Source: Candidatus Omnitrophota bacterium (lineage in GTDB: Bacteria; Omnitrophota; Gorgyraeia; Gygaellales; Profunditerraquicolaceae). Taken from it: a stretch of DNA of 64,000 nt. Both the position numbers and the translations under genes were made by a program. The notes under the pieces were generated by a model. It had not been told where the DNA came from, made no database searches, and saw nothing but the letters and a program-made list of their open reading frames with translations. Location of the stretch: NCBI GenBank assembly GCA_028715415.1, contig JAQURX010000005.1, forward strand, positions 43 through 64,042, given 5' to 3'. Below are positions 1 to 17,702 of the stretch, piece after piece (the first letter of the stretch is position 1; each line of letters opens with the position of its first letter).

Positions 1-1802
1 TCGCTGGTAAAATCGCGGATAATATCTATTTCAGAAAGTTTAACTTTGTATTGAACCATCTCTAAAGTAGTGTCAAGTATTGTGTTTAATTCAAGTAATT
101 CAAAATTCTCATCGCCGCGGCGGGAATATTTCAAAATTCCACGCACAACTTCCCCTCCCTGCACAACATTTGCCTGAATGCGTTCAAGGGCATGGTTTAT
201 GTCTTTAAGCATTTCTTTAACTTCGGGAGTGCATTTTGAAGTGTCTGTATTTACCAGAGTATTAATACTATCTCCTGCGATCAATGAAAGAGCGTAGAAA
301 CGGTTATTTATTTGATGTGATAATCCATCGGCCATGGTCCCGATTGTTGCCATTTTCTCTGCCTGTCCGATTTGCTCCTGCATTTCTTTTGTTTCAGCAT
401 AGAACTGCGCGTTCTCAATTGCAAGCGCTGCCTGGCTTGCAAGCACTTGGAATACATTAAGGTCGTCAATTGTAAAAATCTCTCCTGAAATTTTATCTCC
501 TAAAACAAAAAATCCCATGAATTTATCTTCCAGAAAGCTCGGGATAATTACCGAAGCGTCAAGCAGATGCATTTTTTCTTCTAATATCTTAAAAGTTACT
601 TCATTGGTGTCTTGGGCTTGGCGTTTAATTTCTTCGTAAACAAGCGGCTCGCGCTTAACCATAATCCATGAAACAAGAGTATTGTCGGAAGAAATTTTCT
701 GAATCGGCACCCTTCCTTTATCCCGGCAAACTTGCAAGACATATTCATCTGCCTGCCGGTCGTAAAGATAGGCCGAGAAATAGGAAATTTTGACGGTTTT
801 GGTCATAATGTGCGCAATTAGGTTAAGGAGTTTGTTTAGGTTGCGCACGCGAGTCATGCCGAGTGAAGCCTGTTTTAAGGTTTGCTGATAGCGTCGTTGC
901 TCTTTAAGCAGGCGGTCCTCTGCTCTTCTTTGGATGTAGATATAAAGGAACGGGCCAACAGTGGCTAAGAGGGTTAACAAGCCAAACGGCACAATCCACC
1001 ATTGTGAACCAAGCATATCAACAAGCCAGCTTTTAAGCCAAATAGTCGCTGCGAAAGGTATGCCGAGAACGAGGGTGTAAACAGCGATAAATACGCCTGC
1101 TCGGGTGATGGCTATGGAAACATCCATAAGTCTATATCTAAACATTGCATAAGCAAAAATAAAAGGATATAGTCCGATAAGAATGTTTGAATAAGGATAA
1201 ACAGGTAATCCAAATATAATATATAAGAACATTCCTTCTGGTCCTAGCCAGCCAATTACTGATCCGATTAAGAAATATTTTAGCTGATTGCTTTGGCTTC
1301 CGTTAGTACTCCCCCTGTAAAGATTGAATATTAGAAAGAAAGTATAAAAGAGGATTAAATTATAAAAAATAATATAATAAATCAGGTAAAGTGGATTAAT
1401 CTTTAGATTTAAAACAAAGAAATAAAATTGATTAAAGGAATATTCTAAAAGAATAAAATCTTTTTTAAAGAAAATTAAGTAAAGAGATAGGATAGTTAAA
1501 ATATAAACTAAAATGATTTGAAATGTTCTACGTTTTGTTTTGGTAAGTATTAGCGCGTAATGAATGAAAAAAGTGCAGGTTAATGTTACTCCTATATGTG
1601 CTATTTTAGTCCAATATAAGGCAATTTCTTTTGAATTAGTAGTTGAAAACTTGTAAGCACCTAAAGCCCAAATTGCACAAGCAACGCAAACCATACCCCA
1701 GACATTAGAAAGGCGCTTATTTTTGCCTTTTGTAAATGTGAAAATAGCAATAAAAGAATTTGTAATTAATGTGAATATACAGGACCAAGCAAATAGGTTC
1801 AT
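1..1802 (-). CDS. Sensor histidine kinase, N-terminal portion (multi-TM membrane domain + GAF-like + HisKA H-box); C-terminal ATPase lies beyond the window edge
   Basis: Manual reverse translation from ATG at 1802 gives an open frame to position 1. N-terminus is hydrophobic and helix-rich (MNLFAWSCIFTLITNSFIAIF..., IGLYPFIFAYAMF...). It is followed by a GAF-like region and the H-box IGTMADGLSHQINNRFYALS. Not in the ORF track because the stop is outside the window. Confidence 0.65.
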   Translation of the reverse strand, partial: MNLFAWSCIFTLITNSFIAIFTFTKGKNKRLSNVWGMVCVACAIWALGAYKFSTTNSKEIALYWTKIAHIGVTLTCTFFIHYALILTKTKRRTFQIILVYILTILSLYLIFFKKDFILLEYSFNQFYFFVLNLKINPLYLIYYIIFYNLILFYTFFLIFNLYRGSTNGSQSNQLKYFLIGSVIGWLGPEGMFLYIIFGLPVYPYSNILIGLYPFIFAYAMFRYRLMDVSIAITRAGVFIAVYTLVLGIPFAATIWLKSWLVDMLGSQWWIVPFGLLTLLATVGPFLYIYIQRRAEDRLLKEQRRYQQTLKQASLGMTRVRNLNKLLNLIAHIMTKTVKISYFSAYLYDRQADEYVLQVCRDKGRVPIQKISSDNTLVSWIMVKREPLVYEEIKRQAQDTNEVTFKILEEKMHLLDASVIIPSFLEDKFMGFFVLGDKISGEIFTIDDLNVFQVLASQAALAIENAQFYAETKEMQEQIGQAEKMATIGTMADGLSHQINNRFYALSLIAGDSINTLVNTDTSKCTPEVKEMLKDINHALERIQANVVQGGEVVRGILKYSRRGDENFELLELNTILDTTLEMVQYKVKLSEIDIIRDFTS

Positions 1803-1808
1803 TTTTAG

Positions 1809-3245
1809 TTATAATTTATCACTAAACGTACTTAAAATATTTTTTGCCGTAATTCTACCAGAAACAGCTACTGTTGAAATCCCTCCTTGTCCTGCCCCTC
1901 TAGTGCACCAATGACCTGCAAGATAAAGATTTTTTACTGAAGTTTTTTGCGGAATTAAATTGCCCTTAGTTTGATTTTTTGTAGAAGCCCACCCAAAAGC
2001 AGCTCCATTCCTATTTAAAGTGTATCTATGGAAAGTACAAGGAGTGGCTGTTTCAATTAAATCGATATTTTCTTTGAGGTCGTCCACTATCCTATTAGAA
2101 ATGTCTATTAGTTTGTTTGTTAATTGACCTCTTTTTTGTTTCCAAAAATTCTGATTTTCAAAAGTAGCCATTGTAAATATTTCAATAGTATTTTTTTGAG
2201 ATTTAACTAAAGACTTGTCTTTTGAAGAAGGAAAAGACACTAATAAGCCACTAATTATATTTTCTTTTAAGTTGGTTCTTAAATTCTTGTAACAATTTTC
2301 AATATTGTTTTCTGAAAAATACCAAATATTAGAGCAGTTGTTAGAGGTCTCTTTTAGGTCTTTTTTTATTCCCAAGTAGACTGCAAACACTGAATTTGAA
2401 GGCTTAAGTCTATCTACCGTTTTTCTTTCCTTAGTTTTGGTTTTAATTAATTTCTTAAAAGTTAAGGTAGCATCACAAGCAGAAACTGTTCTTTTAGAAT
2501 AAATCTTTTCTTTGGATACCAACTCTACTCCTATAGCAATGTTATCTTTAACTAAGATTTTAATGACTTCTTTTGAAAGAATAATTTCTCCCCCAAGTGA
2601 TTTAAATCTTTTTACGAATGCTTCAGTAAAATCTTGCATTCCTCCTCTTGGATAGTATCCCGGGTCTAGTATGAATTCATTAAAGAATACAATAGCGATG
2701 ATAGCAGGAATTTTACTTGGTGGTAAACCCATATTGCCTAATAAAAGCAATCCAATTGATGATTTTAAATTAATATCCTTAAAGAAATAATCAAGCAAAT
2801 CTTTTGTGCTTAAGTTTTTAGTCGCTTTAAATTGAAGAAAAATTTCTTTTTTAGAAATGAACTTAAAAAAACGTTCAATATTATTTTTTTCTTTTGGAAA
2901 ACTTTTTTTAAATTCATTAATTGTGTCAAAATAATTTTTTCTAATGTAAGTAATTGAATCAGGTAGGATTATTTTATCAGCCGGATCAAATTGATTAAAT
3001 TTTATTATATTGGTTAGATCGAGTTCTTTAATAATTTGGTTTAGCGATCCATGTTTTATCCCGCCAATATAGTGGATAGATGTGTCAAATTTATAACCTT
3101 TTCGCGTGAAAGAAGTGCAATAGCCACCTGCCATTGAGTGTTTTTCAACAATTAACACTTTCAACCCAGCTTTAGCAAGATAACACCCGCAAGTAAGGCC
3201 CCCGATTCCCGCTCCAATTATTACTACATCGTATTTGTTTTTCAT
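1809..3245 (-). CDS. FAD-dependent oxidoreductase, phytoene desaturase (CrtI)/amine-oxidase family
   Basis: N-terminal dinucleotide fold DVVIIGAGIGGLTCGCYLAKAGLKVLIVEK and C-terminal YLAGHWCTRGAGQGGISTVAVSGRITA typical of the CrtI family; 478 aa. Confidence 0.7.
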   Translation of the reverse strand: MKNKYDVVIIGAGIGGLTCGCYLAKAGLKVLIVEKHSMAGGYCTSFTRKGYKFDTSIHYIGGIKHGSLNQIIKELDLTNIIKFNQFDPADKIILPDSITYIRKNYFDTINEFKKSFPKEKNNIERFFKFISKKEIFLQFKATKNLSTKDLLDYFFKDINLKSSIGLLLLGNMGLPPSKIPAIIAIVFFNEFILDPGYYPRGGMQDFTEAFVKRFKSLGGEIILSKEVIKILVKDNIAIGVELVSKEKIYSKRTVSACDATLTFKKLIKTKTKERKTVDRLKPSNSVFAVYLGIKKDLKETSNNCSNIWYFSENNIENCYKNLRTNLKENIISGLLVSFPSSKDKSLVKSQKNTIEIFTMATFENQNFWKQKRGQLTNKLIDISNRIVDDLKENIDLIETATPCTFHRYTLNRNGAAFGWASTKNQTKGNLIPQKTSVKNLYLAGHWCTRGAGQGGISTVAVSGRITAKNILSTFSDKL

Positions 3246-3847
3246 TTTATATGTTTAACTGCTTCTATGCTATTTTTGCGAATAGAACGTTTGCCTTTTT
3301 CCGCTGGATAACCAAAGGTCAGAATTGCTATTAATTCTTTATCGGTTTTAAGTAGTTTATTAATTCCTTCTTTGCAAAATAGAGGAGTGTCAAGCCAGCA
3401 GGAGCCAATTCCACAAGATTCAGCACCAAGAATCATATTTTGGATGGCCGCAGAAATTGCGCTAAATTCAGCCTTCTTGATTATGCCTGAAAACCTTGAG
3501 TAAATTTCTTTAAATCTATTTTTCATTTTATCCATATCTCCGGAATTATATACTGCAATTGTAACAGGAGCTGACTTAATTATATTTGATGCGGAGTGAA
3601 GTAAAATATTAACTCCTGCTCCGGAATTCTTGGATTTTTTCAAAACGATTTCCGATAGTTGTTTTTTTATCGATTTATTTGTTATTACTACAAAAAACCA
3701 AGGTTGGATTCTTAGGAAGCTTGGAACTGACGGCCCCCAGATCCCCGCCTCAATAATCTTATCCAAGATTTTCTTAGGGATGGATTTGTTTTTATATTTT
3801 CTTACTGTCGCGCGCTCTTTGATAAGTTTGAGTACATCAGTTTTCAT
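3242..3847 (-). CDS. Nitroreductase-family flavoprotein
   Basis: 201 aa; ATVRKYKNKSIPKKILDKIIEAGIWGPS N-terminal nitroreductase signature; 4-nt ATGA overlap with the downstream gene suggests translational coupling. Confidence 0.65.
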   Translation of the reverse strand: MKTDVLKLIKERATVRKYKNKSIPKKILDKIIEAGIWGPSVPSFLRIQPWFFVVITNKSIKKQLSEIVLKKSKNSGAGVNILLHSASNIIKSAPVTIAVYNSGDMDKMKNRFKEIYSRFSGIIKKAEFSAISAAIQNMILGAESCGIGSCWLDTPLFCKEGINKLLKTDKELIAILTFGYPAEKGKRSIRKNSIEAVKHIK

Positions 3848-3873
3848 ACAAAACCTTCCGTGGCTGGTGAAGA

Positions 3874-5133
3874 TTAAATTTTCTTAGCAAACCATTTTGT
3901 CATTGCTATTAGTGGAAGCATTGGCGGCAGGCCCGGAGCAAATGGCAATACACTGGCATCGCAGACAAAAAGATTCTTTAGTTTTGTTTCTAAGTTGTTA
4001 TCTACAACTTTTCCAATAGCCGCAGTTCCACCCGGATGCGCGCCTTTTAATTTTGTGACAAATATGTTCTTTGGGTCAACTCCGCATTCAACAAGAATTG
4101 TTTTGGCAATATCTCTTCCTTTTTTTAGTTTTCTTAGGTCGTTTTCTGTAGGGGCTTTGGATATTGTGCCATCAGGATAAACTTTTCCAATAGAATCGTC
4201 ATTAATCTTTGTCATGATTCCGATTAATTTTCTTCTTTTGAAAATGTTTAGGTAGTCTTTTGGCTCTAATCCGGAGAATAAACCGATGCAATTAGGGTCT
4301 ACAAATGGCGACAATACAAATCCTTCGGTTTTGTGGAATTTAGTACAAACTACAGACATTGATAATTCTTTTGCCTGTGTAGAATCTTTTGCAACTCCAT
4401 AAGTCATATGAAACAAATCTACAAAAAGATTATCTCCAGCTTCAATCCCTGAATTTTGTAGAATTATTGGAGTTCCTATGCCTCCTGCGGAAAGGATGAT
4501 TTTGTCAGCAAAATACTTCTTTCCATTCTTTCCTTCTACTCCAGTGGCTTTCCCGCTTTCTTCAATAATCCTTTTAACTGAGAATCTAGTAATTAAATCA
4601 ATGCCTAGGTGTTTGATTTCCTCCCAGCATTTTTTTGCCGACCATTTTATGCCAAATTTGCACCCTTCAGAGCAATGTCCGCAGTCAAGGCATTTTCCCG
4701 TAATACTAAACTTAGGCATAGGGAACATCTCATAGCCAAGTTTATTCGCAGCATCCATTATCCTGTGCGAAGTTTTACCAATTTCAAGGCCGCTATCTCT
4801 GACAAAACATTCTTTTTTCGCCTCGGCAATTTCATCTTTGAAGTCAATGCTAAGTTGGTTGTATTCTTTGTCGGTGAAATCAACCGCGTTTCCGCAGCTA
4901 ACAATGCTTGTGCCTCCAACGCCGAAAACCCTAAAAATCGTAACTCCTTGGATACTTTTTGCAAGAGCAAATTTATCATAAAAAAGCGCAGCAGGAAAAA
5001 CCGAACCCAAGTTATTAATAATCCCGCCTTTTTCTAAAAGCAATACGGTTTTATTTTTTTTAACTAATTCTTTAGCAAGCACTAATCCGCAAAGCCCGGC
5101 TCCTACAATTATATAATCATATTTTTTTTCCAT
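3874..5133 (-). CDS. Compact GMC-family FAD oxidoreductase with inserted Cys-rich (CxxCxxCxxxC) motif
   Basis: N-terminal DYIIVGAGLCGLVLAKEL...LLEKGG, the central stretch VGGTSIVSCGNAVDF, and C-terminal GAHPGGTAAIGKVVDNNLETKLKNLFVCDASVLPFAPGLPPMLPLIAM match GMC N- and C-domains. An extra CLDCGHCSEGCKFG insertion is present. Only 419 aa. Confidence 0.55.
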   Translation of the reverse strand: MEKKYDYIIVGAGLCGLVLAKELVKKNKTVLLLEKGGIINNLGSVFPAALFYDKFALAKSIQGVTIFRVFGVGGTSIVSCGNAVDFTDKEYNQLSIDFKDEIAEAKKECFVRDSGLEIGKTSHRIMDAANKLGYEMFPMPKFSITGKCLDCGHCSEGCKFGIKWSAKKCWEEIKHLGIDLITRFSVKRIIEESGKATGVEGKNGKKYFADKIILSAGGIGTPIILQNSGIEAGDNLFVDLFHMTYGVAKDSTQAKELSMSVVCTKFHKTEGFVLSPFVDPNCIGLFSGLEPKDYLNIFKRRKLIGIMTKINDDSIGKVYPDGTISKAPTENDLRKLKKGRDIAKTILVECGVDPKNIFVTKLKGAHPGGTAAIGKVVDNNLETKLKNLFVCDASVLPFAPGLPPMLPLIAMTKWFAKKI

Positions 5134-5136
5134 TTT

Positions 5137-6201
5137 TCACCTCTGTTTTCTTAGGAAGTAAGTTAGTATTCTTTCTAAGAGGCTGTTGGTGATATTTGGC
5201 ATAGTAAAGCCACAACTTTTTAGTATCGCATTTGTATCAGTAGAGTCAAGATTTATTTTGAAATTTACCGAAAGGATTGTAGCGCGTAAAATTGCCTGTT
5301 GCGTAGGGGTAAACTTATCGGCAATAAATTCTTCCAAGCTTGTAATCTTGGGTTTTTTAAAGTTTGCCAGTTTAGCTGCAGTATTAATTATTGTTTCTAT
5401 TGGAACTAAATCTGTTGGGATAGGATGGAATGTCTTGTTTTTTTCTTTTGTGGTGTTTGCTAATACGTAAATCGCGTTTGCTGTTAGGTCAATCGGCACC
5501 AAGCTTAGGCGGGCGTCTTTAATCGGCAGAGTATCAAACAATTCAATCCTGCACAGGTTAATAAATTGATAGACGTGTTTAAATTGGAATGTTTTTCCTT
5601 CTATAGAATCTCCCATGATCATAGAAGGCCTAAATATATCAACCCAAAGCCCTTTTTTACGGAATTCTACCACAATTTTCTCTGCTTCAAACTTTGTTTT
5701 TTCGTAATTTGTATCAAACCCTTGTCCGACATCCAGATCCTTTTCGGTAAATTTATTATGATAATTACCGTAAACATAAGCTGTGCTGATGTGGTTGATT
5801 TTCTTGAGTAAGCCATTTTTTGCAAAACTATCGCTTAAATCAAGTATTCTTTTGGTGCCTGTAACATTTATATTGGTAATTTCATTTATTGGGCGGTTTA
5901 AATCTGTGATTGCGGCGCTATGATATATTTCTTCAACAGAATCCCGTAATTCCTGAAGCGTTTGATTACTCAACGCCAAGTTATCTTTACCGACATCTCC
6001 TTCTAAAATAACTAAATTATCGGGTTGAAATTTAGTATCCCAGAATTTTAACACTTCTAAGATTCTATTTTGTGAGGTTTTTTCTTTTGAACTTCTGGAA
6101 AGCGCAAAAACTTTATGGTTGTTCTCTAAGAATATTTTTAAGAGGTAGGAGCCAAGCAGCCCTGTTCCACCGGTGAGAAAAATTGTTTTTTGAGAGTTCA
6201 T
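5137..6201 (-). CDS. SDR-superfamily thioester reductase (R-domain / fatty acyl reductase-like) protein
   Basis: IFLTGGTGLLGSYLL...ALSRS...HSAA...NVTGT...YEKTK pattern matches the thioester-reductase / male-sterility NAD-binding family. ATG at 6201 (MNSQK) preferred over the TTG-extended track start at 6228. Confidence 0.6.
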   Translation of the reverse strand: MNSQKTIFLTGGTGLLGSYLLKIFLENNHKVFALSRSSKEKTSQNRILEVLKFWDTKFQPDNLVILEGDVGKDNLALSNQTLQELRDSVEEIYHSAAITDLNRPINEITNINVTGTKRILDLSDSFAKNGLLKKINHISTAYVYGNYHNKFTEKDLDVGQGFDTNYEKTKFEAEKIVVEFRKKGLWVDIFRPSMIMGDSIEGKTFQFKHVYQFINLCRIELFDTLPIKDARLSLVPIDLTANAIYVLANTTKEKNKTFHPIPTDLVPIETIINTAAKLANFKKPKITSLEEFIADKFTPTQQAILRATILSVNFKINLDSTDTNAILKSCGFTMPNITNSLLERILTYFLRKQR

Positions 6202-6211
6202 GAAATCGTTT

Positions 6212-7420
6212 TTATCCCGTTTTTCCAAAGACTATGCAGCAGTTGTTGCCGCCGAAGGCAAAGGCGTTGTTGAGTGCTGTGTTAATTTTAAGTTTTCTTG
6301 CTGTGTTTGGTACGCAGTCAATGTCGCATTCAGGGTCAGGTTCAGTAAAATTGATTGTCGGAGGCAAGACTCCTTCTTTAATCGCCATGCAGCATGCAGC
6401 TGCTTCAATGGCACTCGCAGCCCCCATGCAGTGGCCAAGCATTGATTTACTTGAGCTAACAGGTAGTTTTCTTTCTCCGAAAACTTCTTTTATGGCAGTA
6501 GATTCTTCTTTGTCATTTTGAGTTGTTCCTGTGCCATGGGCATTGATATAGTCAATATCATCCGGCTTAAGCCCGGAGTCGTTTATTGCTTTCTCCATTG
6601 CTTTTCTAATCCCTCTTCTTGCCGGGATAGTCATATGATGAGCATCGCAAGATAAGCCGGCTCCGAGAATCTCCGCGTATATGGGAGCTTTTCTTTCAAT
6701 AGCTTTTTCTAAGGGCTCTAGAATAAGAATGCCTGCGCCTTCCCCCAGAAGCATCCCTTTCCTGTTCTTGTCAAATGGGGCGCAAATATCAGGCGCCATC
6801 GCGTATAATTTCTGGAATCCTTGGTATGCAATCCTTGATAGTGCCTCAGCGCCTCCCGCAATCGCTAAATCTACCTGTCCGGTTTTGATTAAATCAAAGC
6901 CATAGCTTAGGCTATAATTTCCCGCAGAACAGGCATTGGGGATTAAAAGATTAGCCCCTTTTGTTTTAAAGAAATATCCGGTGTTTCTTGCAATTGAAGG
7001 AGAGAAAATATTAAGTAGGAATTTATTTGTCAGGCTGTCAGGGTCATTTTCCAAAATCATGTGTGATGACAGGTCTATAGTATTTCCTTCAGGAATAGTT
7101 ACGCCAATAACAAATGCCGGCTCTGTTTTTCTGATTGACGGGATGGGGATTTTTGCGTCTTTTAATGCAAGTTTTGTCGCGGCAATTGAAAAAACTGAAG
7201 CTCGCCCCATAAATTTCAGCATTTGTTTGGGGACAAAATCTTCGGGATTAAAGTTTTTTACTTCTCCCCCGTTTTTGCGGGTAAATTTGGAGGTGTCAAA
7301 CAAATCAACTTTGCTTATTCCGGACTTTCCTAAGATTAAATTCTTCCAAAAATCTTCTATTCCTATCCCAATTGAGGAAACAATTCCTAATCCGGTTACC
7401 ACAACTCTTCTATTCATCAT
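6212..7420 (-). CDS. fabF: Beta-ketoacyl-ACP synthase II-like condensing enzyme (intact Cys-His-His triad)
   Basis: Motifs PNACSAGNYSL (Cys), YINAHGTGTTQND (His) and KSMLGHCMGAAS (His). Start set at the MMNRR ATGs (7420/7417), because the track's MTPLI extension lies inside a repeat element. Confidence 0.8.
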   Translation of the reverse strand: MMNRRVVVTGLGIVSSIGIGIEDFWKNLILGKSGISKVDLFDTSKFTRKNGGEVKNFNPEDFVPKQMLKFMGRASVFSIAATKLALKDAKIPIPSIRKTEPAFVIGVTIPEGNTIDLSSHMILENDPDSLTNKFLLNIFSPSIARNTGYFFKTKGANLLIPNACSAGNYSLSYGFDLIKTGQVDLAIAGGAEALSRIAYQGFQKLYAMAPDICAPFDKNRKGMLLGEGAGILILEPLEKAIERKAPIYAEILGAGLSCDAHHMTIPARRGIRKAMEKAINDSGLKPDDIDYINAHGTGTTQNDKEESTAIKEVFGERKLPVSSSKSMLGHCMGAASAIEAAACCMAIKEGVLPPTINFTEPDPECDIDCVPNTARKLKINTALNNAFAFGGNNCCIVFGKTG

Positions 7421-7429
7421 AATTAATGG

Positions 7430-7494
7430 TGTCATTCCCGCGAAAGCGGGAATCTACGCTATTTTCTGGATCTTTGCTTTCGCAGGGATGACAA
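7430..7494. repeat. Palindromic repeat unit A (hairpin H1 + inverted diverged copy H2; tgtcat...atgaca termini)
   Basis: tgtcattcccgcGAAAgcgggaatctacg is a perfect 8-bp stem with a GAAA loop. The second arm ctggatctttgcTTTCgcagggatgacaa is a degenerate inverted copy. Copies recur at 16.5 kb and 52.3 kb. Confidence 0.8.
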
Positions 7495-7503
7495 TATTCA
7501 TCC

Positions 7504-7553
7504 GTCATTCCCGCCCCTGCTTCCGCAGGGGTAAACTCCAGTGGGAATCTACG
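7504..7553. repeat. Repeat unit B (H1 stem with nested inner hairpin cccctgcTTCCgcagggg)
   Basis: gtcattcccg cccctgcttccgcagggg taaactccag tgggaatctacg; a second copy at 16549 carries compensatory changes in the inner stem. Confidence 0.8.
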
Positions 7554-7566
7554 ACATAACCTTGTT

Positions 7567-8016
7567 TTATTCTTTTGGTTTGATTCCAAAGACGATGTTA
7601 GCTTCAACGACTGTTTCGTTATCAACTAATGCGCAGGCTTTGACAATTCCGGCGTTGCCAAGGATTTTCTCACCTTTTATCTTTAAAATTAACTGATCTC
7701 CGGGCCGCACCGGCTTTAAGAATTTAGATTCAACTCTACCTAAAAAGTATGTCGGGTGTTTTTCTGCGATTTCAGGTTTAAGTGCAGCAAAAAGAAGTAT
7801 GCTGGCCTGCGCAAGCGCTTCAATGATTACAACCCCCGGCAGGATAGGATTCCCCGGAAAGTGCCCCTGAAAAAAATAATCATTCATAGTGACATTTTTT
7901 AAGCAAGTAATTTCTCTTGAAGGCGCATTTATTTCAAGGACAGAATCAACAAAAAGAAAAGGGTATTTCTGCGGCAAGATTGATTGGATTTTATTTATAT
8001 CCCAGATAGCAGGCAT
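7567..8016 (-). CDS. fabZ: 3-hydroxyacyl-ACP dehydratase FabZ-like (hot-dog fold)
   Basis: FFQGHFPGNPILPGVVIIEALAQ active-site motif; 149 aa. Confidence 0.8.
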   Translation of the reverse strand: MPAIWDINKIQSILPQKYPFLFVDSVLEINAPSREITCLKNVTMNDYFFQGHFPGNPILPGVVIIEALAQASILLFAALKPEIAEKHPTYFLGRVESKFLKPVRPGDQLILKIKGEKILGNAGIVKACALVDNETVVEANIVFGIKPKE

Positions 8017-8017
8017 A

Positions 8018-8272
8018 TTATTTTTCTAGTAATGGCTGAAGGACTTTGTAAACATCGCCAAGGCTTCTTAAAGTAGGAATTTTCTCTTCAGGCACAACTA
8101 CCTTGTATTTCTTTTCAATGCTTGCGATAATTTCAAGCGCCATCATGCTGTCAATACCTAAGTCTTCTGAAAACTTAACATTTTCTAAAAGTTCTTTTTC
8201 TTCAACTTCGGTAATTTCAGCGACTAGTTTTTTTACCTCAAGCTTGATTTCCTCAAAATTCTTTTTAGCCAT
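8018..8272 (-). CDS. acpP: Acyl carrier protein
   Basis: 84 aa, phosphopantetheine attachment motif DLGIDSMMALEI. Confidence 0.85.
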   Translation of the reverse strand: MAKKNFEEIKLEVKKLVAEITEVEEKELLENVKFSEDLGIDSMMALEIIASIEKKYKVVVPEEKIPTLRSLGDVYKVLQPLLEK

Positions 8273-8289
8273 AGCCTCTCCCTTGGTTG

Positions 8290-9036
8290 TCAGATTGCCA
8301 AGCCACCGTCGATTTTAATTGCTTCGCCGGTAATGTAATTAGCTTTTTCCGATGCAAGAAAAACGCACAAGTTTGCCACTTCTTCGGCTTCGCCTAATCG
8401 TTTCACTGGTATGATTTTTAGAATTTCGGTTTTCATTTCTTCTCTCATCCCGCTTACCATATCTGTATTGATAAAGCCCGGACAGACAGCATTTACGGTA
8501 ATATTATATGCCGCTACTTCCTTTGCTAAAGCTTTTGTAAAGCCTATTATCCCTGCTTTTGAAGCGCTATAATTTGTCTGGCGCGGTAATCCGGTTATCC
8601 CGCTTACCGAGCTCATATTAATTATCTTGCCTGATTTTTGTTTCAACATTGTTGTTATGCAGGCCCGGCTCATGTTAAACGTCCCGCCGAGATTGGTTTC
8701 TAAAACATCTTTCCAGTCTTCCTGAGCCATCATTAACAATGCTTTATCTTTGGTAATACCTGCGTTATTGATGAGTATATCTATTTTTTGGAATTTTTCC
8801 ATAGTTTTTTCAATTACTTTCCGGCATTGCTCAAGGTCTCTGACATCTGTTTGTAAGCTGAGGCATTCAATATTTAATCCTTCAATTTCTTTTTTAAGTT
8901 TTTCCGCTTCCTCTATATTTTTATTATAAGTAAATACTACACTTGCTCCTGCTTTAGCAAGCGCAACACAGCAAGCCCTGCCGATTCCGCGAGAGCCGCC
9001 GGTAACAATCGCAATCTTTCCTTTTAATTCATTCAT
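8290..9036 (-). CDS. fabG: 3-oxoacyl-ACP reductase (SDR, FabG-like)
   Basis: KGKIAIVTGGSRGIGRA, NNAG and SxnY..K motifs. Start moved to MNELKGK (9036) to remove a 56-nt overlap of the track ORF with the upstream gene. Confidence 0.8.
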   Translation of the reverse strand: MNELKGKIAIVTGGSRGIGRACCVALAKAGASVVFTYNKNIEEAEKLKKEIEGLNIECLSLQTDVRDLEQCRKVIEKTMEKFQKIDILINNAGITKDKALLMMAQEDWKDVLETNLGGTFNMSRACITTMLKQKSGKIINMSSVSGITGLPRQTNYSASKAGIIGFTKALAKEVAAYNITVNAVCPGFINTDMVSGMREEMKTEILKIIPVKRLGEAEEVANLCVFLASEKANYITGEAIKIDGGLAI

Positions 9037-9037
9037 T

Positions 9038-10276
9038 TTAATTTTCCGTAAATTTTTCGAGGATACAGGCGCTATTGTATCCTCCTGGGCCAAAAGAAGT
9101 AATTAATGCAATCTTTACGTCTTTTTTCTCCCCTTTGTTAGGAACACAGTTGATTTCGCACTCCGGGTCTTTTTCTTCATAGTTTATTGTCGGTGGAATA
9201 ATTCCACGCTGCATTGCTCCTATGCAAGAAGCAACCTGAAGAGCACCTGAAGCTGCAAAAGTTTCACCAATCATGGACTTAATTGAACTAACTGGGATGT
9301 CTCTTAATTCTTTTCCAAAGATTTTATTAAGGACTTTTACCTCTGTTTTATCCAAATCCTGAGTTGAATTAGCGCAGCTTGAGATATAGTCTATATCTTT
9401 AATGTCGATTCCCGCTTCTTTAATTGCTTGAATTATTGCGATCTCAAGGCCTTCTCCTTGCGGGTTAATCGTTCCCATCTTACTCGCGTCAAAATAATTA
9501 CAAACACTTTTAATTTTAGCGTAAATATTAGCGCCTCGTTCCCTTGCCCTATCCTTTTCTTCTAGAGAAAAAACACAGGCAGCTTCTCCTAGTATAGGGC
9601 CATTTCTTTTTTTGTCAAAGGGGCAGCTTAATTCTTTTCCGTTTAACCCGGCCATGTAGCCAAGTTTTTGTAAGCCCATAAATAATGATGAGGTTAAAGT
9701 TTCGACACCTGCAGAGAAAATAATTTCTGCTTTGTTTGTTTTCAGGGCGTCTATGGAGTATTTCAACGCGGCAAGGCCCGAACAAAACCCCGTGCTCACT
9801 GTTGCATTAAAGCCTTGTATATTAAAACGGATTGAAACTTGAGAAGAAGCTGCGTTCATTACTGTTGAGGGGAAAAGCGCCGGGCTTGCGAATTCTATGC
9901 CTTCGGTAAATACTTCTTTGTCAAATTCCGTAATAGACCATAAATGCGGAAAGGTTGTCCCTGTGCAAACGCCGAATTTATCCGTATTCTCATCTGTTAT
10001 TTCAATTTTAGCATCGTCAATGGCAAGTTTTGCCGCTGATATTAAAAATAATGCGCTTCTATCTAAATTCCTCAAACCCTTAGCGCCTAAGATTTCTTTT
10101 GGATCAAAGTTTTTAGCTTCGCAGGCAGATTTTACTTTAAATTCATCTGTGTTGAAGAAAGAAATCTGTGTTGATGAATTTAAGCCGTTTTCAAGAGCCT
10201 GCCAGAACTCAGCCTTACCGATTCCGTTCGGGGCAATTACCCCAATTCCTGTAATAACAGTTTCAAAGTTTTTCAT
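9038..10276 (-). CDS. Ketosynthase-like protein with Cys retained but both catalytic His replaced (C-C-E; chain-length-factor / KS0-like)
   Basis: Full thiolase/KAS fold (MKNFETVITGIGVIAPNGIG..., VSTGFCSGLAALKY) but YISSCANST replaces YINAHGTGT and KSMIGETFAASG replaces KSMxGHxxGAAG. Confidence 0.7.
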   Translation of the reverse strand: MKNFETVITGIGVIAPNGIGKAEFWQALENGLNSSTQISFFNTDEFKVKSACEAKNFDPKEILGAKGLRNLDRSALFLISAAKLAIDDAKIEITDENTDKFGVCTGTTFPHLWSITEFDKEVFTEGIEFASPALFPSTVMNAASSQVSIRFNIQGFNATVSTGFCSGLAALKYSIDALKTNKAEIIFSAGVETLTSSLFMGLQKLGYMAGLNGKELSCPFDKKRNGPILGEAACVFSLEEKDRARERGANIYAKIKSVCNYFDASKMGTINPQGEGLEIAIIQAIKEAGIDIKDIDYISSCANSTQDLDKTEVKVLNKIFGKELRDIPVSSIKSMIGETFAASGALQVASCIGAMQRGIIPPTINYEEKDPECEINCVPNKGEKKDVKIALITSFGPGGYNSACILEKFTEN

Positions 10277-10279
10277 AGT

Positions 10280-11299
10280 TTATCTTACCGGTGCATGCGG
10301 CGCCCATACCTCAAAGCCATGTTGGACCGCAATATCAGAAATTTCTTCCATTTTGTCAGAACACGAACTTTCTCCTAAATAATGATGGAATGATTTCTCT
10401 TCAAAAGTTAAAAGCATTGTTTCTGCCATAGAGGCATTAATCACGCCTTTGGGAAGCCCTAAGTCAATATTAATATCTTCCGGAAACGGAACTTTTACTA
10501 AGGTGCCGCTAATTACCGGAAGCCCTTTGCAGATGTTATTTTCTGATTTTGAATTTAAAGTAGCATCGCAAAAGATCGGCTTTTTTTCTAATTCGGAAAC
10601 CATTTTTTCTAAATTCACTTTTGAAAAATCCAGATTAATGATGATATCAGCCTCTTTAATAGCTTTATTTATATCTGGTTCTACGCAAATCATGGTATTG
10701 TTATTGTGTAAAATTGTTTCTTCTATTCTTTGTAATATTTTAGGATCATCTCCTTGCAGGATAATTTTGTTTATGCAGCTTGAAAATCGTTCCGAGCAAA
10801 GTTTGCCTATTGAGCAGTCCGCACCGATTATGACAAGGGTTAAATTATTTGTTTTTAAGCCTCTTTCTCTGCAGGTCCTATAAATAGTTTCATAAATTGC
10901 CCAAGCGGAATAATATTTTCCGTTTGTTACTGGAAGAGGAACCTTTTCTTCAATTTTTTGATGATTTTTTTCTGCCAGGTATCCTGCATATCCGCTCAAG
11001 CCTAAAAGGCTTGCTTTAAGCTGCTTTGCAATGTTACCTGCTGAGTAAATCGTGTTTAGAACGAATTCTTCATCAAGGTTTGGAGCCTCGTTGTCTAATA
11101 ATGGGCTAATGATAACATGGCCTTGTATTTCTTTTCCTTGAGTTGATTGGATACGTTTTAGATGAATTACTTTGCAAGGATAACTTCCTTTGGAGAACAT
11201 TTTCGCAAAAAAACCGGGCATGCGTTTAAATGCAGGCCAGAATCCTTTAGCTTCATCCAGATTTGTCGGGTTTACTACAAAAGCAAAGCTTTTTATCAT
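10280..11299 (-). CDS. Rossmann-fold protein resembling long-chain acyl-ACP reductase (AAR) / shikimate-DH-like family
   Basis: By recollection, similar to cyanobacterial AAR. N-terminal GKEIQGHVIISPLLDNE compares to AAR GKVIHGRYIESCFLPE. NAD fold LVIIGADCSIGKLCSERF. C-terminal ASMAETMLLTFEEKSF...EEISDIAVQHGFEV compares to AAR ACFAEAMLLEFEGW...EAIGEASVRHGFQP. Confidence 0.45.
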   Translation of the reverse strand: MIKSFAFVVNPTNLDEAKGFWPAFKRMPGFFAKMFSKGSYPCKVIHLKRIQSTQGKEIQGHVIISPLLDNEAPNLDEEFVLNTIYSAGNIAKQLKASLLGLSGYAGYLAEKNHQKIEEKVPLPVTNGKYYSAWAIYETIYRTCRERGLKTNNLTLVIIGADCSIGKLCSERFSSCINKIILQGDDPKILQRIEETILHNNNTMICVEPDINKAIKEADIIINLDFSKVNLEKMVSELEKKPIFCDATLNSKSENNICKGLPVISGTLVKVPFPEDINIDLGLPKGVINASMAETMLLTFEEKSFHHYLGESSCSDKMEEISDIAVQHGFEVWAPHAPVR

Positions 11300-11309
11300 G
11301 TTAGGTTGG

Positions 11310-11534
11310 TTAGTTTTCCTCTAAAGATGATTTTCTGCGGTCTCTTTTTGAATAATTATATTCTGATTTCTCTTTAATCCATCTTTCAATATGTTTTTTG
11401 TGGAATCTCCAGTCTGTCCCAATTTTAAAAGCCGGGAGTTTCCCTTCACGAGCGTATTTTTGTACTGTTAAAAGGTGGACATTTAAGTATTCTGCTACAT
11501 CTTTCGCTGTCCAAATTTCTTTATTCTGTGACAT
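11310..11534 (-). CDS. Helix-turn-helix DNA-binding protein, excisionase/MerR-like family
   Basis: WTAKDVAEYLNVHLLTVQKYAREGKLPAFKIGTDWRFHKKHIERW; ATG at 11534 preceded by AGTGAGGT Shine-Dalgarno 7 nt upstream. Confidence 0.6.
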   Translation of the reverse strand: MSQNKEIWTAKDVAEYLNVHLLTVQKYAREGKLPAFKIGTDWRFHKKHIERWIKEKSEYNYSKRDRRKSSLEEN

Positions 11535-11570
11535 ATTTAACCTCACTTTAGCATATTTACACTTGCTATA

Positions 11571-11599
11571 AATATACTATCAAAACCATGACTTGTCAA
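11571..11599 (-). promoter_or_regulatory. Sigma70-like promoter (TTGACA -17- TATATT) driving the HTH/biosynthetic cluster
   Basis: Minus-strand read: cTTTATTGACAagtcatggttttgatagTATATTtatagcAagtg; -35 at 11594-11599, -10 at 11571-11576; about 30 nt upstream of the HTH start. Confidence 0.45.
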
Positions 11600-11620
11600 T
11601 AAAGAATTTAGGGACAAAAT

Positions 11621-11690
11621 AAAGGGGACGGTTCTATTTTTTTTGGTTTTCTTGACCGTAAAAATAGAACCGTCCCCTTTATTTACCTTT
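11621..11690 (-). terminator. Rho-independent terminator (18-21 bp perfect stem, T-tract); potentially bidirectional
   Basis: ggggacggttctattttt (11624-11641) pairs perfectly with aaaaatagaaccgtcccc (11660-11677), 18-nt loop. On the minus strand it is followed by tttattttg, immediately after the stop of the lipoyl-domain gene. Confidence 0.7.
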
Positions 11691-11921
11691 TTAATCTATA
11701 ATTGCTAAAGTGTCTCCAACGTTAACAGTATCTCCTTCCTGAAACATGATATCGGAGATAGTTCCGGTAGCTGGACTGGGAAGATTGAATGTAGCTTTAT
11801 CGGTTGCAAATTCAACAAGGTCGTCTTTTTCGCTTACCTTGTCTCCTAATTTAAAAAACCAGTAGGAAAGGGTTGCTTTTGTGATTCCTTCTCCTAATTC
11901 CGGAAGAACTACTTTAACCAT
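11691..11921 (-). CDS. Standalone lipoyl (biotinyl/lipoyl attachment) domain protein, E2-type
   Basis: About 76 aa with LPELGEGITKATL...EFATDKATFNLPSPATGTI lipoyl-lysine motif; ATG at 11921 has a strong AGGGAGGA Shine-Dalgarno 6 nt upstream. Confidence 0.7.
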   Translation of the reverse strand: MVKVVLPELGEGITKATLSYWFFKLGDKVSEKDDLVEFATDKATFNLPSPATGTISDIMFQEGDTVNVGDTLAIID

Positions 11922-11973
11922 GGTATCCTCCCTGGGCACCAGCCCGCCCTGTTTCATCCGATAGAAACAGGGG

Positions 11974-12717
11974 TCATAGTATTGGGGGTAAGCGTCTTCT
12001 TAGCCCCAGTTTATTAATTGATGTTGTTGTTAAACTTGCAGTTGAAAAAACCGCATTAAATTCCGGAAAAATCTCACAGTTGGGTTCTTCAGGCAGCGTA
12101 TTGTTAAATTTAGCAGCAATTTTATCTTTTAATTCTTTGATTTGCATGGAAGCTCCTAATTCAGCTTCTAAACAAGTCATTTTAATATCCATTCCACACG
12201 GCCTGATTAAATTAAAGTTTTCTAAATCAAATTTCTTAATATTGATACTAAGGCCGTGGAAACTTATCCAGTTTTTAATTGATATCCCGATTGAGGCGAT
12301 TTTCTTATCTTGAACCCATACGCCGGTTAATCCGGGACGCCTTACTCCGTTAATTCCCATTTCACAAAGTATATCCATGATAGTTTCTTCAAGGTATCTT
12401 AAGAAAAGGTGAATGTCTTTTTTGAAATATTTAAGGCTGAATATGGGATAAACTGTCAGCTGCCCGGGGCCATGATAGGTTATATCTCCTCCGCGCGTTG
12501 ATTCAATAACTTGAATTTTTTTTGCTTTTACTTCTTCCGGAGGAGCTACTAAATTTTGCCTGGAGCCTGCCCTGCCGATTGTAATCACCGGATTATGCTG
12601 GCAAAAAATAAGTGCAAGCGGATAATCTTCATTTTTTACAGCTGTGTGGGTTTGTGTTTGAAAGGCTAAAGCCTTATTGTAGTCAATCAAGCCTAAATCA
12701 AAGATTTTAACTTGCAT
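11974..12717 (-). CDS. lipB: Lipoyl(octanoyl) transferase LipB
   Basis: IFCQHNPVITIGRAG...GGDITYHGPGQLTVYPI...KIASIGISIKNWISFHG. Confidence 0.8.
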   Translation of the reverse strand: MQVKIFDLGLIDYNKALAFQTQTHTAVKNEDYPLALIFCQHNPVITIGRAGSRQNLVAPPEEVKAKKIQVIESTRGGDITYHGPGQLTVYPIFSLKYFKKDIHLFLRYLEETIMDILCEMGINGVRRPGLTGVWVQDKKIASIGISIKNWISFHGLSINIKKFDLENFNLIRPCGMDIKMTCLEAELGASMQIKELKDKIAAKFNNTLPEEPNCEIFPEFNAVFSTASLTTTSINKLGLRRRLPPIL

Positions 12718-12719
12718 TT

Positions 12720-14009
12720 TTATTTGATTGCGTCGTGGATTGCTTCTGACACTGTCGGGTGTGCAAAGATTATATTCTTTAAATTTGCTGTTGTGAAATG
12801 ATTAGAAATTGCTAGTGCTAAAATTCCAATTAGCTCTGTTGAGCGAGGCCCGATTAATGAGCTTCCTAAGATTTCTTTTGATTGCTTATGGGAGATAATC
12901 TTTATAAAGCCTTCTGTTTCATCTAAGATTCGCGCCATGCCGTTTCCAAGGAAATCAAATCTATCAATATTAATTTCAATCTTTTTCTCTTTGGCTTCAG
13001 CTTCTTTTAGCCCTACGCTTGCAATTTCAGGATCTGTAAAAATACAATTAGGCACAGTCGTGTTATCCGCTTTTTGCAAATTTCCTTCGGTAACAGCGTT
13101 TGAAGCGGCGAGAATCCCTTGATAAGAAGCATAGTGGGCCAACATGATTTTTCCTGTGCAATCTCCGCAAGCAAAAACTTTCGGATTACTTGTCTGTAGG
13201 TAGTCATTAATAATAACTTTACCTTTTTGCATTTTGATTCCCAATTCTTCAAGTCCAAGGCCGTAGGTATCAGGAGTTCTGCCTACGCAAACCAAAATTT
13301 TACTAATTCCTTTAAGGTCCAAATCTTTAGCATCAGTATTAGTACAGACTTTAATCCCCTTTTTCTTAAAGATCGTTTCTAACTTTTTGGCAATCTCAGC
13401 GTCTTCTTCGGGTAACAGAAAAGGCATCTTTTCAACTAGCGTGACTTTTACTCCTAAATTGTTAAATAAACTGGCGAATTCACAGCCGATTACTCCTCCT
13501 CCGATAATTAAGAGTGATGCTGGAATCTCGTTTAGATTAAGCAAATCGTCGCTTGAAAGCACATTCTTACCGTCAAATTTGAAAATCGGCAATTCCATCG
13601 GTTTTGATCCGGTAGCAATGATTAATTTCTTAGTTTCAATTATCTTTTCATTTACTTTAATTCTTTCAGGGGATAATAATTGAGCCTCCCCATTTAATAA
13701 ATCAATCCCCTGGAGCATAAATTGCATTCCTTGGGTGAGCTGTTGGACTATTTTATTTTTTCTTTCCTGGATTTTTGCGAAATTAAAGCTACAGTTGGTT
13801 AAATCTACTCCGAATATGGAAGATTTTTTGGCAAGAGAATATATTTTTGCGCTTTGGATTAAAGCTTTAGTGGGAATGCAGCCGCAGTTAAGGCAGGTGC
13901 CTCCTATTTTTGATTTTTCAATGAGGCATACTTTAGCCCCAAGTTTTTTTGCTTTGATGCTTGCGTTAAACCCAGCCCATCCTGCGCCGATTACAACAAT
14001 GTCATACAT
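12720..14009 (-). CDS. lpdA: Dihydrolipoyl dehydrogenase-family pyridine nucleotide-disulfide oxidoreductase (E3)
   Basis: YDIVVIGAGWAGFNAS, redox-active GGTCLNCGCIPTKAL, C-terminal HPTVSE dimer-interface motif. Confidence 0.75.
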   Translation of the reverse strand: MYDIVVIGAGWAGFNASIKAKKLGAKVCLIEKSKIGGTCLNCGCIPTKALIQSAKIYSLAKKSSIFGVDLTNCSFNFAKIQERKNKIVQQLTQGMQFMLQGIDLLNGEAQLLSPERIKVNEKIIETKKLIIATGSKPMELPIFKFDGKNVLSSDDLLNLNEIPASLLIIGGGVIGCEFASLFNNLGVKVTLVEKMPFLLPEEDAEIAKKLETIFKKKGIKVCTNTDAKDLDLKGISKILVCVGRTPDTYGLGLEELGIKMQKGKVIINDYLQTSNPKVFACGDCTGKIMLAHYASYQGILAASNAVTEGNLQKADNTTVPNCIFTDPEIASVGLKEAEAKEKKIEINIDRFDFLGNGMARILDETEGFIKIISHKQSKEILGSSLIGPRSTELIGILALAISNHFTTANLKNIIFAHPTVSEAIHDAIK

Positions 14010-16526: not shown

Positions 16527-16547
16527 TTTAAGTATCCTTTACTCATC

Positions 16548-16633
16548 TGTCATTCCCGCCCCTGTTTCCACAGGGGTAAACTCCAGCGGGAATCTATGTT
16601 ACATCCTGGATCCCTGCTTTCGCAGGGATGACA
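16548..16633. repeat. Repeat locus: unit B' + hairpin H2 between pilT and leuD
   Basis: tgtcattcccg cccctgtttccacagggg taaactccag cgggaatctatg ... ctggatccctgcTTTCgcagggatgaca. The inner stem shows compensatory g>t/c>a relative to the 7504 copy. Confidence 0.8.
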
Positions 16634-16640
16634 ACTTTTT

Positions 16641-17687: not shown

Positions 17688-17702
17688 TCTAGTCCTCTCT
17701 TT

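Follow-up and report, generated by a model that had tools for sequence, protein, structure and literature searches.

A conserved twelve-gene unit occupies positions 1–11546 of a 64,000-nucleotide stretch of contig JAQURX010000005.1 (hereafter the window, always at its full length), which comes from the metagenome-assembled genome (MAG) of an uncultured Omnitrophota (Candidatus Omnitrophica) bacterium. We read this operon, with a probability of about 0.55, as a second carrier-protein-bound chain-building line that would run apart from the housekeeping fatty-acid synthase (FAS), with a product that flavoproteins would modify and a reductase set free as an aldehyde- or alcohol-type building block of lipids. 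An earlier note on this DNA had found the combination of genes impossible to assign to a described pathway, yet its active ketosynthase (KS), its catalytically dead KS, its acyl carrier protein (ACP), FabZ and a CrtI-like flavoprotein are all homologues of proteins encoded by Cluster I of anammox bacteria. All large open reading frames (ORFs) in window 1–11600 lie on the minus strand. The gene labels come from Pfam and NCBIfam domain searches of the window ORFs, and these searches back each of the labels given earlier to the twelve co-directional genes. Intergenic gaps are mostly 1–26 nt, the exception being the 131 nt between the FabZ and KS genes.

Cluster I (KustE3603–3608) is the putative ladderane cluster and encodes amxACP, amxFabZ, amxFabF2, amxFabFmut, a phytoene dehydrogenase (PDH) homologue and a B12 radical-SAM enzyme, and the PDB entries matched by the window proteins are the first four of these (bioRxiv 10.64898/2026.05.19.726425; PMC10139942). 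We compared the window with the Cluster I locus of Brocadia (L089; 100% identical to 9s5h_C), which holds genes for ACP, FabZ, FabF2, FabFmut, the PDH-like flavoprotein and the B12 radical-SAM enzyme. In tblastn searches against this locus, full-length matches were obtained for FabZ (46% identity), the active KS (50%, 404 bits) and the dead KS (39%, 294 bits), and each window KS scores higher with the anammox protein of its own kind than with the other. Judged by sequence, the KS, dead KS, ACP and FabZ are clear orthologues of amxFabF2, amxFabFmut, amxACP and amxFabZ, and the CrtI-like protein is homologous to the PDH-like flavoprotein of Cluster I. The two systems share an active KS paired with a triad-less KS whose second catalytic His is replaced by Glu, an amx-type ACP (45% identical), a FabZ with Ile at the canonical tunnel Gly, and a CrtISO/PDH-like flavoprotein (35% identity over the full length, 250–258 bits), and neither encodes an enoyl reductase, FabD or FabH.

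The systems also differ. The catalytic positions of the dead KS read Phe/Cys/Glu in the window and Val/Asn/Glu in Brocadia; the window operon has its own FabG, thioester reductase (TR), nitroreductase-superfamily protein (NTR) and iron–sulfur-type GMC flavoprotein (GMC-FeS), none of which is found in the Brocadia locus; the gene order is unlike that of Cluster I; and the host is an Omnitrophota rather than an anammox bacterium. A tblastn search with the Brocadia enzyme returned no B12 radical-SAM homologue in the window, and the ORFs of the cluster are otherwise assigned. Ladderane synthesis is therefore unlikely, and we rejected ladderane production as the default assumption.

The active KS (6212–7420) scores above the NF005589 cut-off and retains all five of the residues we followed, Cys-His-Lys-His-Phe, when aligned with E. 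coli FabF. The intact KAS II of the earlier note is thus borne out, with the Cys-His-His triad present alongside the Lys and the gate Phe. Since the first ATG of this ORF (7435) lies inside an intergenic repeat, translation probably starts at the ATG at 7420 or 7417. The second KS-fold protein (9038–10276), which contains the Pfam KS N- and C-terminal domains, carries Phe, Cys, Glu and Pro in place of Cys163, His303, His340 and the gate Phe400 (F/C/K/E/P over the five positions). A Cys close by is offset by one position in the alignment and lacks conservation, the orthologues having Tyr-Thr there. It had been described as a histidine-less KS, and realignment recovers no normal His, with Cys at His303 and Glu at His340; the description nevertheless understates the change, as the whole catalytic triad (Phe/Cys/Glu) is gone. 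Because the entire triad is absent, we consider this protein a chain-length-factor (CLF)-like partner of the active KS.

The structural matches of the two proteins fall in the same pair of anammox proteins. The best PDB match of the active KS is 9s5h_B (432 bits), ahead of Iga11 (345) and B. subtilis FabF (322), and that of the dead KS is 9s5h_C (297 bits). The anammox KS pair forms a heterodimer that decarboxylates malonyl-ACP only when both subunits are together, it is cross-linked faster by C6–C8 than by C16 probes (saturated alpha-bromoacyl C6, C8 and C16 only), and Phe135 and Val139 of amxFabFmut influence its chain-length preference (bioRxiv 10.64898/2026.05.19.726425). Both of these tunnel residues are kept in the window dead KS. 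In a neighbour-joining tree, the active and dead KSs of Omnitrophota modules A and B (see below) and of anammox bacteria form two parallel clades, with bootstrap values of 74 and 52. A dead KS that is closer to amxFabFmut than the Omnitrophota ones (48% identity) is encoded on a 1.17-Mb metagenome contig (L110, 9989–12431), where it sits with FabG and FabZ directly after a riboflavin operon and has no active KS or PDH-like gene nearby.

Between the two KS genes lie those for FabG, ACP and FabZ. The FabG-type 3-oxoacyl-ACP reductase (8290–9036; TIGR01830, 314 bits, cut-off 297.75) likely starts at the ATG at 9036, matching its 248-residue orthologues. The ACP (8018–8272) is a dedicated carrier of the amxACP type: it falls below every AcpP cut-off in NCBIfam (44–51 bits against 70–84), its best PDB matches (7auf, 7qv0_D and 9s5i_E) are all anammox ACPs, and it shares 45% identity with Brocadia amxACP against 24% with E. 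coli AcpP. For the FabZ-type dehydratase (7567–8016) the best PDB matches are 7qv0_A and 8ayb, both amxFabZ, and its score is above the cut-off of NF000582 (143.9 against 113) and below that of TIGR01750 (147.2 against 155.15). The signatures of amxFabZ are Ile69 at the tunnel Gly, a hydrophobic residue at 115 and Ser/Thr at 96 (PMC10139942). Two of the three are present in the window protein, which has Ile at the canonical Gly and Leu where amxFabZ has Val/Ile115; its Leu at position 96 is neither the Ser/Thr of amxFabZ nor the canonical Lys/Arg. The Ile-for-Gly hallmark also occurs in nearly all aligned Omnitrophota FabZs. The anammox enzyme gives good turnover up to C8, and only on amxACP, ignoring the canonical ACP (PMC10139942).

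The earlier note had itself raised the alternative of an ordinary second copy of the housekeeping fab operon. We argue against this, because the ACP is not an AcpP, the FabZ has the Ile signature and one of the KSs is dead. The unit is not self-contained, as had been proposed: no FabD, AcpS/phosphopantetheinyl transferase or enoyl reductase was found in the cluster or among the other window ORFs that were annotated or probed with E. coli FabD, FabH, FabI and AcpP. The canonical operon partners of type II FAS (FabD, FabH and FabI/K/L/V) likewise do not accompany FabG and FabF among the annotated and probed window ORFs. Within this same scope the module of KS, KS-like protein, ketoreductase (KR), dehydratase (DH) and ACP does lack an enoyl reductase, just as the note had said. 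FabH, FabD and PlsX are present in the phylum, as seen in another Omnitrophota locus (L022).

Two proteins in the unit had been taken for thioester reductases, but only one appears able to act as such. The TR (5137–6201) is of the R-domain/fatty-acyl reductase type (PF07993, NAD_binding_4, 171 bits; TIGR01746, 146.8 bits, below the cut-off of 213). Its best PDB match is the R domain of MxaA, and it resembles this domain and, as a class, the fatty acyl reductases to which ElbD belongs in its NAD_binding_4 fold and in its conserved TGxxGxxG and Ser/Thr-Tyr-Lys motifs. It differs from MxaA-type R domains in that it stands alone, unfused to a carrier, adenylation or acyltransferase domain. From these features we predict that the TR is the sole competent reductive-release enzyme of the cluster.

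The other candidate (10280–11299) has no Pfam match and scores 46.6 bits with TIGR04058 (cut-off 450), but it is a full-length homologue of acyl-ACP reductase (AAR) and of the N-terminal domain of PigE. Its Ser290 aligns with the catalytic Cys294 of AAR, a position at which PigE has Cys. The alignment was made with PDB 6jzz, in which residue 294 is itself Ser; we take this entry to be the C294S mutant of AAR. The NAD(P)-binding motif is degenerate, with GADCSIG instead of GxxGxxG, and the HTH-adjacent orthologues of the protein have Ser, Ala or Pro at the Cys site together with a degenerate GxxGxxG. The second and third AAR paralogues in other loci, as well as many Firmicute homologues, keep both the Cys and GATGxxG. 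The AAR-like protein is thus probably a pseudoenzyme by its sequence, and we do not count it as a second reductive-release enzyme because of the Ser at the catalytic Cys and the degenerate Rossmann motif; its gene is also missing from one of the syntenic relatives (L120). The comparison with the cyanobacterial AAR/ADO pathway runs along the same lines: a full-length AAR homologue is present, but with the Cys294-to-Ser change, the degenerate motif and no ADO gene, and we rejected an alkane pathway of this kind.

Homologues of AAR that do contain the Cys are found widely among anaerobic Firmicutes and in other phyla (L017–L083), under the annotation "shikimate dehydrogenase". At least 571 loci in species-representative genomes carry such a gene, with no ADO partner, and the one in Orenia marismortui (L083, 8001–9071) lies in a coaX-dus-greA-lysS housekeeping context. 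In a MAG resembling Omnitrophica GWA2_41_15 (L050), an SRPBCC protein gene and two AAR-like genes are directly followed by a fragment of a B12 radical-SAM gene (10996–11628), cut by the end of the contig, whose product is 42% identical over 215 residues (147 bits) to the Brocadia Cluster I enzyme.

The remaining enzymes are the three flavin oxidoreductases that had been recognised from the sequence, and Pfam domains confirm all of them as GMC-like, nitroreductase-like and CrtI-like. The first is a short GMC-family flavoprotein (3874–5133; GMC_oxred_N and GMC_oxred_C) with an inserted CxxCxxCxxxC motif of the ferredoxin type. The four Cys of this motif and His366 near the C-terminus are invariant in four aligned homologues, and some GMC-FeS homologues match Pfam Fer4 (PF00037). 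In all four Omnitrophota loci that have it, the GMC-FeS gene directly follows that of a competent reductase; in the window and in L122 this reductase is the TR, and in L008 and L067 it is an AAR of the Cys type. A general rule that GMC-FeS always follows a thioester reductase was rejected, since it fails in a Spirochaete locus and in a Firmicute locus, and we retain it as a weak local association. The NTR (3242–3847; PF00881, 96.7 bits), an FMN protein, has the uncharacterised nitroreductase 3gfa as its best PDB match, and its gene is conserved beside that of the TR. The last of the three (1809–3245; PF01593) belongs to the CrtI/CrtISO (amine-oxidase) family; like the Brocadia PDH, it matches carot_isom and crtI_fam best, with both proteins below the cut-offs.

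Related genomes had been suggested as a place to look for the same gene set, and the operon is found in the same gene order in three other Omnitrophota MAGs (L120, GCA_041643015.1; L121, an ENA assembly; L122, GCA_041643235.1). The order in these loci begins with aconitase-family genes, isocitrate and malate dehydrogenases, LpdA, LipB, a lipoyl protein, the HTH protein and the AAR-like protein; it continues with the dead KS, FabG, ACP, FabZ, KS, TR, GMC, NTR and CrtI-like genes and in some cases a second CrtI-like gene, and it ends with a sensor kinase, a response regulator and an HD-GYP protein. L120 lacks the AAR-like gene, and both L120 and L121 lack the GMC gene. Identity to the window proteins is 67–71% for the dead KS, 70–74% for FabG, 65–71% for ACP, 66–73% for FabZ and 66–68% for the KS, and it is 43–55% for the TR, 62–70% for the NTR (41% in L005) and 35–50% for the CrtI-like protein, the lowest value being that of the divergent L122 copy. 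The GMC protein is 64% identical (L122 only) and the AAR-like protein 39% identical (L121 and L122 only). As the same order recurs in three independent Omnitrophota MAGs, the cluster is more than a chance arrangement. In the NCBI MAG of the host itself, proteins 100% identical to the window AAR-like, dead KS and GMC proteins are encoded on a 129-kb contig. Outside these loci, the five-gene module of dead KS, FabG, ACP, FabZ and KS (module A), which derives from type II fatty-acid synthesis, stands alone in an Omnitrophota chromosome record of 1.5 Mb (L087, CP070797.1), in window order and with housekeeping genes around it. Module A adjoins a paralogous module B in L088, and in L005 the TR-NTR-PDH genes lie alongside a paralogous module.

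Taken together, these comparisons suggest the following route. FabD encoded elsewhere would load malonyl onto the dedicated ACP, and the heterodimer of KS and dead KS would prime by decarboxylation of malonyl-ACP and then elongate, as shown in vitro only for the anammox orthologues. FabG and FabZ would then yield an enoyl-ACP. Because the operon encodes no enoyl reductase, the chain would either stay (poly)unsaturated or be reduced by an enzyme encoded elsewhere or by an operon flavoprotein. The PDH/CrtISO-like flavoprotein may alter the double bonds through isomerisation, saturation or desaturation, the MxaA-like TR would free the chain as an aldehyde or alcohol, and the NTR and, where present, GMC-FeS could carry out further redox tailoring. 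The likely product, as far as these analogies allow, is a reduced (aldehyde or alcohol), short- to medium-chain and possibly unsaturated building block for envelope lipids, not a ladderane. The earlier view of a dedicated elongation module joined to reductive release and oxidoreductases stands as regards the non-canonical module and the three flavoproteins, and has to be amended to a single competent release enzyme.

Several points weigh against this interpretation. The mechanistic steps are all carried over from anammox or polyketide synthase (PKS) homologues, and even in anammox bacteria the link of Cluster I to its product is unproven (bioRxiv 10.64898/2026.05.19.726425; PMC10139942). That the module is a "second" line assumes a canonical acpP/fabF/fabZ/fabI set in the same genome. 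Well conserved and found across the phylum, the module also retains the fabG-acp-fabF order, and each of these points would suit a housekeeping role as well. Support for the KS tree is only moderate (74 and 52 of 100), and the tree has a single outgroup. The GMC-FeS gene is optional in the operon and outside Omnitrophota is unlinked to reductases, and the roles given to the three flavoproteins are guesses.

A more specific version of the proposal, which we advance tentatively and give well under even odds, is that the Omnitrophota operon is a non-ladderane sister of the anammox ladderane cluster. In this view the shared cassette (KS, dead KS, amx-type ACP, Ile-gated FabZ and PDH-like flavoprotein) would have arisen in the PVC group before the anammox bacteria did, and its product would be a precursor chain of ordinary appearance, probably unsaturated. 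Only the step of the B12 radical-SAM enzyme would then be specific to ladderanes; one Omnitrophota MAG (L050) even has the related gene fragment mentioned above, next to AAR-like genes. If this is true, the "anammox-specific" proteins studied so far are not diagnostic of ladderanes, and the Omnitrophota genes offer a route to the ladderane precursor.

Among competing explanations, the one that fares best is that the five-gene module is simply the normal elongation machinery of Omnitrophota, with PlsX, FabH and FabD encoded elsewhere, and that the reductase and flavoproteins merely channel some of the acyl-ACP into fatty alcohols, such as those of ether lipids, or change double bonds without oxygen. 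The distribution of the module is in keeping with this idea, as the dead KS has more than 120 cluster representatives at 54–71% identity, with named sources that are nearly all Omnitrophota, and the module is found on its own among housekeeping genes in L087. FabG and FabZ pass NCBIfam cut-offs (FabZ that of NF000582, not TIGR01750), and the order fabG-acp-(fabZ)-KS mirrors the canonical fabG-acpP-fabF. Moreover, canonical acpP or fabF was not found in about 1.8 Mb of fetched loci, and in L022 (5805–8728) canonical plsX-fabH-fabD is followed by HTH, SRPBCC, Cys-type AAR and kinase genes, not by fabG-acpP-fabF. Homologues of ElbD, a myxobacterial ether-lipid reductase, have been reported from 93 of 267 Omnitrophota MAGs (PMC11868695). 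An overview of the Omnitrophota (PMC10066038) contains nothing on lipids or gene clusters.

We nonetheless regard a housekeeping role as unlikely. One would expect a housekeeping AcpP to vary no more than the enzymes it serves. The ACP of the module shares just 24% identity with E. coli AcpP, scores below all AcpP cut-offs and is the least conserved member of the module, at 52–56% between the window and L087/L088 against 60–69% for the enzymes. In FabZ, the tunnel-narrowing Ile is one that in amxFabZ is tied to poor turnover beyond C8. Anammox bacteria carry both a Cluster I-type system and a canonical FAS (PMC10139942), with an amxFabZ that disregards the canonical ACP, and some Omnitrophota genomes have two paralogous modules side by side (L088).

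A reading that develops the polyene idea of the earlier note, and that we find still less probable, is that the KS/CLF pair, KR and DH build a conjugated polyenoyl-ACP and that the R domain frees a polyenal or polyenol, which could serve as a pigment, antioxidant or signal. The combination of KS, CLF-like protein, KR, DH and ACP with no enoyl reductase, in the operon or the annotated and probed rest of the window, is what such a pathway would call for, and a housekeeping enoyl reductase may not act on this ACP if the carrier is ignored in the way that amxFabZ ignores the canonical one. In addition, the TR finds its best PDB match in the R domain of the synthase for myxalamid, a polyene, and CrtISO-like enzymes act on conjugated polyenes. 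The closest polyene-forming relative is the ishigamide-type highly reducing type II PKS (Iga10–16), which likewise has a KS/CLF pair and discrete KR, DH and ACP but no enoyl reductase, and whose KS, Iga11, is the second-best PDB match of the window KS (345 bits). However, Iga12 is not among the best matches of the window dead KS, the window FabG and FabZ score as fatty-acid enzymes, there are no amide-forming or other Iga tailoring genes, and release here is reductive. The anammox orthologues, too, are treated as fatty-acid enzymes, with the heterodimer probed by saturated C6, C8 and C16 compounds only and C6–C8 favoured. An accessory pigment cluster would not typically be conserved as broadly across the phylum as this module is, and the hosts are nanobacteria of anoxic habitats with no obvious use for a pigment.

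Aryl polyene (APE) clusters had been named as an example of this architecture. They share with the unit the generic logic of a KS, a CLF-like protein, KR, DH and ACP, and the window FabZ gives weak Pfam matches to ApeI-like and ApeP-like families. None of the APE-specific genes is found among the twelve ORFs, namely those for the aryl-starter adenylating enzyme, the two ACPs, LolA-like and MMPL export proteins, acyl- and glycosyltransferases and a thioesterase. We therefore rejected membership in this class, and anammox Cluster I is the closer relative.

Finally, it is highly improbable that the module makes octanoyl-ACP for lipoylation by the adjacent LipB, as in mitochondrial fatty-acid synthesis: lpdA, lipB and a lipoyl-domain gene do lie directly upstream in the window and in L120–L122, an LpdA-like gene directly follows Brocadia Cluster I, and the C6–C8 preference of the anammox KS heterodimer and amxFabZ goes with tunnel residues conserved in the window dead KS and FabZ, but a strong hairpin and a separate promoter-like site split the two units, octanoate requires an enoyl reductase and none was found, no role is left for the TR, NTR, PDH-like and GMC genes, and the module lies away from lipB in L087 and L088, just as lipB elsewhere accompanies the HTH and AAR-like genes without the module.

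With these alternatives weighed, a dedicated second chain-building line remains the reading we prefer, and its novelty can be delimited. In both structural papers, Cluster I is described as confined to ladderane producers (bioRxiv 10.64898/2026.05.19.726425; PMC10139942). Similar clusters were noted in some deltaproteobacteria (Rattray et al. 2009), and a Cariaco Basin survey lists expressed antiSMASH "ladderane" clusters in Omnitrophota MAGs, without analysis (bioRxiv 10.1101/2022.12.20.521206). In view of these precedents, we class the kind of system as known but uncharacterised. New here are the orthology to Cluster I traced for one component after another, down to the diagnostic residues; the lack of a radical-SAM enzyme; the addition of TR-NTR-PDH(-GMC-FeS) genes; the probable AAR pseudoenzyme; and the variable-cargo locus described below. 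Ladderane biosynthesis is a long-standing problem. An Omnitrophota operon that has orthologues of four of the six Cluster I proteins and a homologue of a fifth, without the radical-SAM enzyme, therefore narrows down which step can be ladderane-specific and allows the output of the shared part to be approached by comparison. When antiSMASH reports "ladderane" clusters in Omnitrophota and other phyla, the calls most likely reflect this broader family of KS/CLF systems of fatty-acid-like character. For the biology of the Omnitrophota, the gene content suggests that reduced lipids (aldehydes or alcohols) are made by a dedicated and probably regulated pathway.

The genes at the two ends of the unit may be concerned with regulation. 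The first encodes an HTH_17 (excisionase/MerR-like) DNA-binding protein (11310–11534; PF12728, 58 bits) and has GAGG 7 nt upstream of its ATG at 11534, and the last encodes a 7TM-GAF sensor histidine kinase (1–1802; HisKA_7TM and GAF) whose C-terminus lies outside the window; its end and the genes beyond window position 1 were deduced from the relatives, exact matches to the AAR-like and CrtI-like proteins having led only to short Logan contigs. The kinase gene starts 6 nt after the stop of the CrtI-like gene, so co-transcription is likely. Both proteins are probably regulatory; that the kinase senses the state of the membrane is speculation. In many Omnitrophota the HTH gene is found beside lipB and lipoyl genes, with or without biosynthetic genes, and the kinase–response regulator–HD-GYP arrangement is kept in relatives whatever the cargo.

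The stretch between the HTH/pseudo-AAR pair and the kinase group is variable in L002, L003, L004, L005, L008, L010, L014, L022, L067 and L085, and its cargo is always lipid-related, the kinds seen being FabZ, thioesterase, SRPBCC proteins, competent AAR paralogues, GMC-FeS and KS modules. It consists of FabZ and a PilZ-thioesterase in L003; an SRPBCC protein, a Cys-containing AAR paralogue and a GMC-FeS protein in L008 and L067; two or three AAR paralogues in L004 and L010; and module B, which comprises three KS genes plus CrtI-like ones, in L002, L005 and L085. Given this variation, the HTH and AAR-like proteins and the kinase are better regarded as conserved flanks and not necessarily as pathway enzymes. 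A 4HBT thioesterase and a GMC-FeS flavoprotein each occur as fusions with a PilZ (c-di-GMP-binding) domain (L003, 11509–12279; proteins P0260 and P0288). These fusions and the HD-GYP gene downstream of the kinase hint at control of these lipid enzymes by c-di-GMP. Toxin–antitoxin and nucleotidyltransferase pairs (AbiEi/AbiEii, ParE, MNT/HepT, HEPN) are repeatedly inserted within KS-module operons (L002, L085, L088, L120 and L121).

A strong terminator had been proposed to separate the unit from a housekeeping array, and a hairpin with a 25-bp stem and a U-rich tail is indeed present on the minus strand (11617–11684; dG −39.7 kcal/mol, z −7.2), with none of 200 shuffles equally stable. It comes directly after the lipoyl-protein gene and is likely the terminator of the upstream lpdA-lipB-lipoyl-protein unit; an Rfam scan of 1–12800 gave only spurious hairpin matches at this terminator. 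As for the near-consensus promoter reported upstream of the HTH gene, the sigma-70-like match TTGACA-17-TATATT exists (11571–11599, minus strand; 11 of 12 positions), but it is only a consensus match, and we do not count it as evidence because such sites occur near chance frequency in this AT-rich region (44 found against 36.5 expected). The upstream unit (11691–14009) encodes a free-standing lipoyl-domain protein of 78–88 residues, LipB and an LpdA-like flavoprotein. The LpdA-like gene that follows Brocadia Cluster I (L089, 14440–15873) may be a coincidence or reflect a link to lipoate or C8 chains. The rest of the window is housekeeping in nature, with tricarboxylic acid cycle-type enzymes and, further upstream, KsgA, PdxA, SurA, an Mfd-like protein, SecDF and Trp and His biosynthesis.

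The FabZ/KS gap is filled by two REP-like palindromic repeats (7431–7551, minus strand) that lie outside the pathway itself. The repeat, TAGATTCCC...GGGAATGAC, has a short form of 26 nt and a long form of 48 nt with a nested hairpin. There are four copies in the window, all on the minus strand (7431–7456, 7504–7551, 16549–16596 and 52336–52361), against none expected by chance. A PilT-like (type II/IV secretion) ATPase gene (16641–17687) sits between the genes for the large (17703–18956) and small (16026–16526) subunits of an aconitase-family enzyme, and this arrangement (16026–18956) is kept in L121 and L122.

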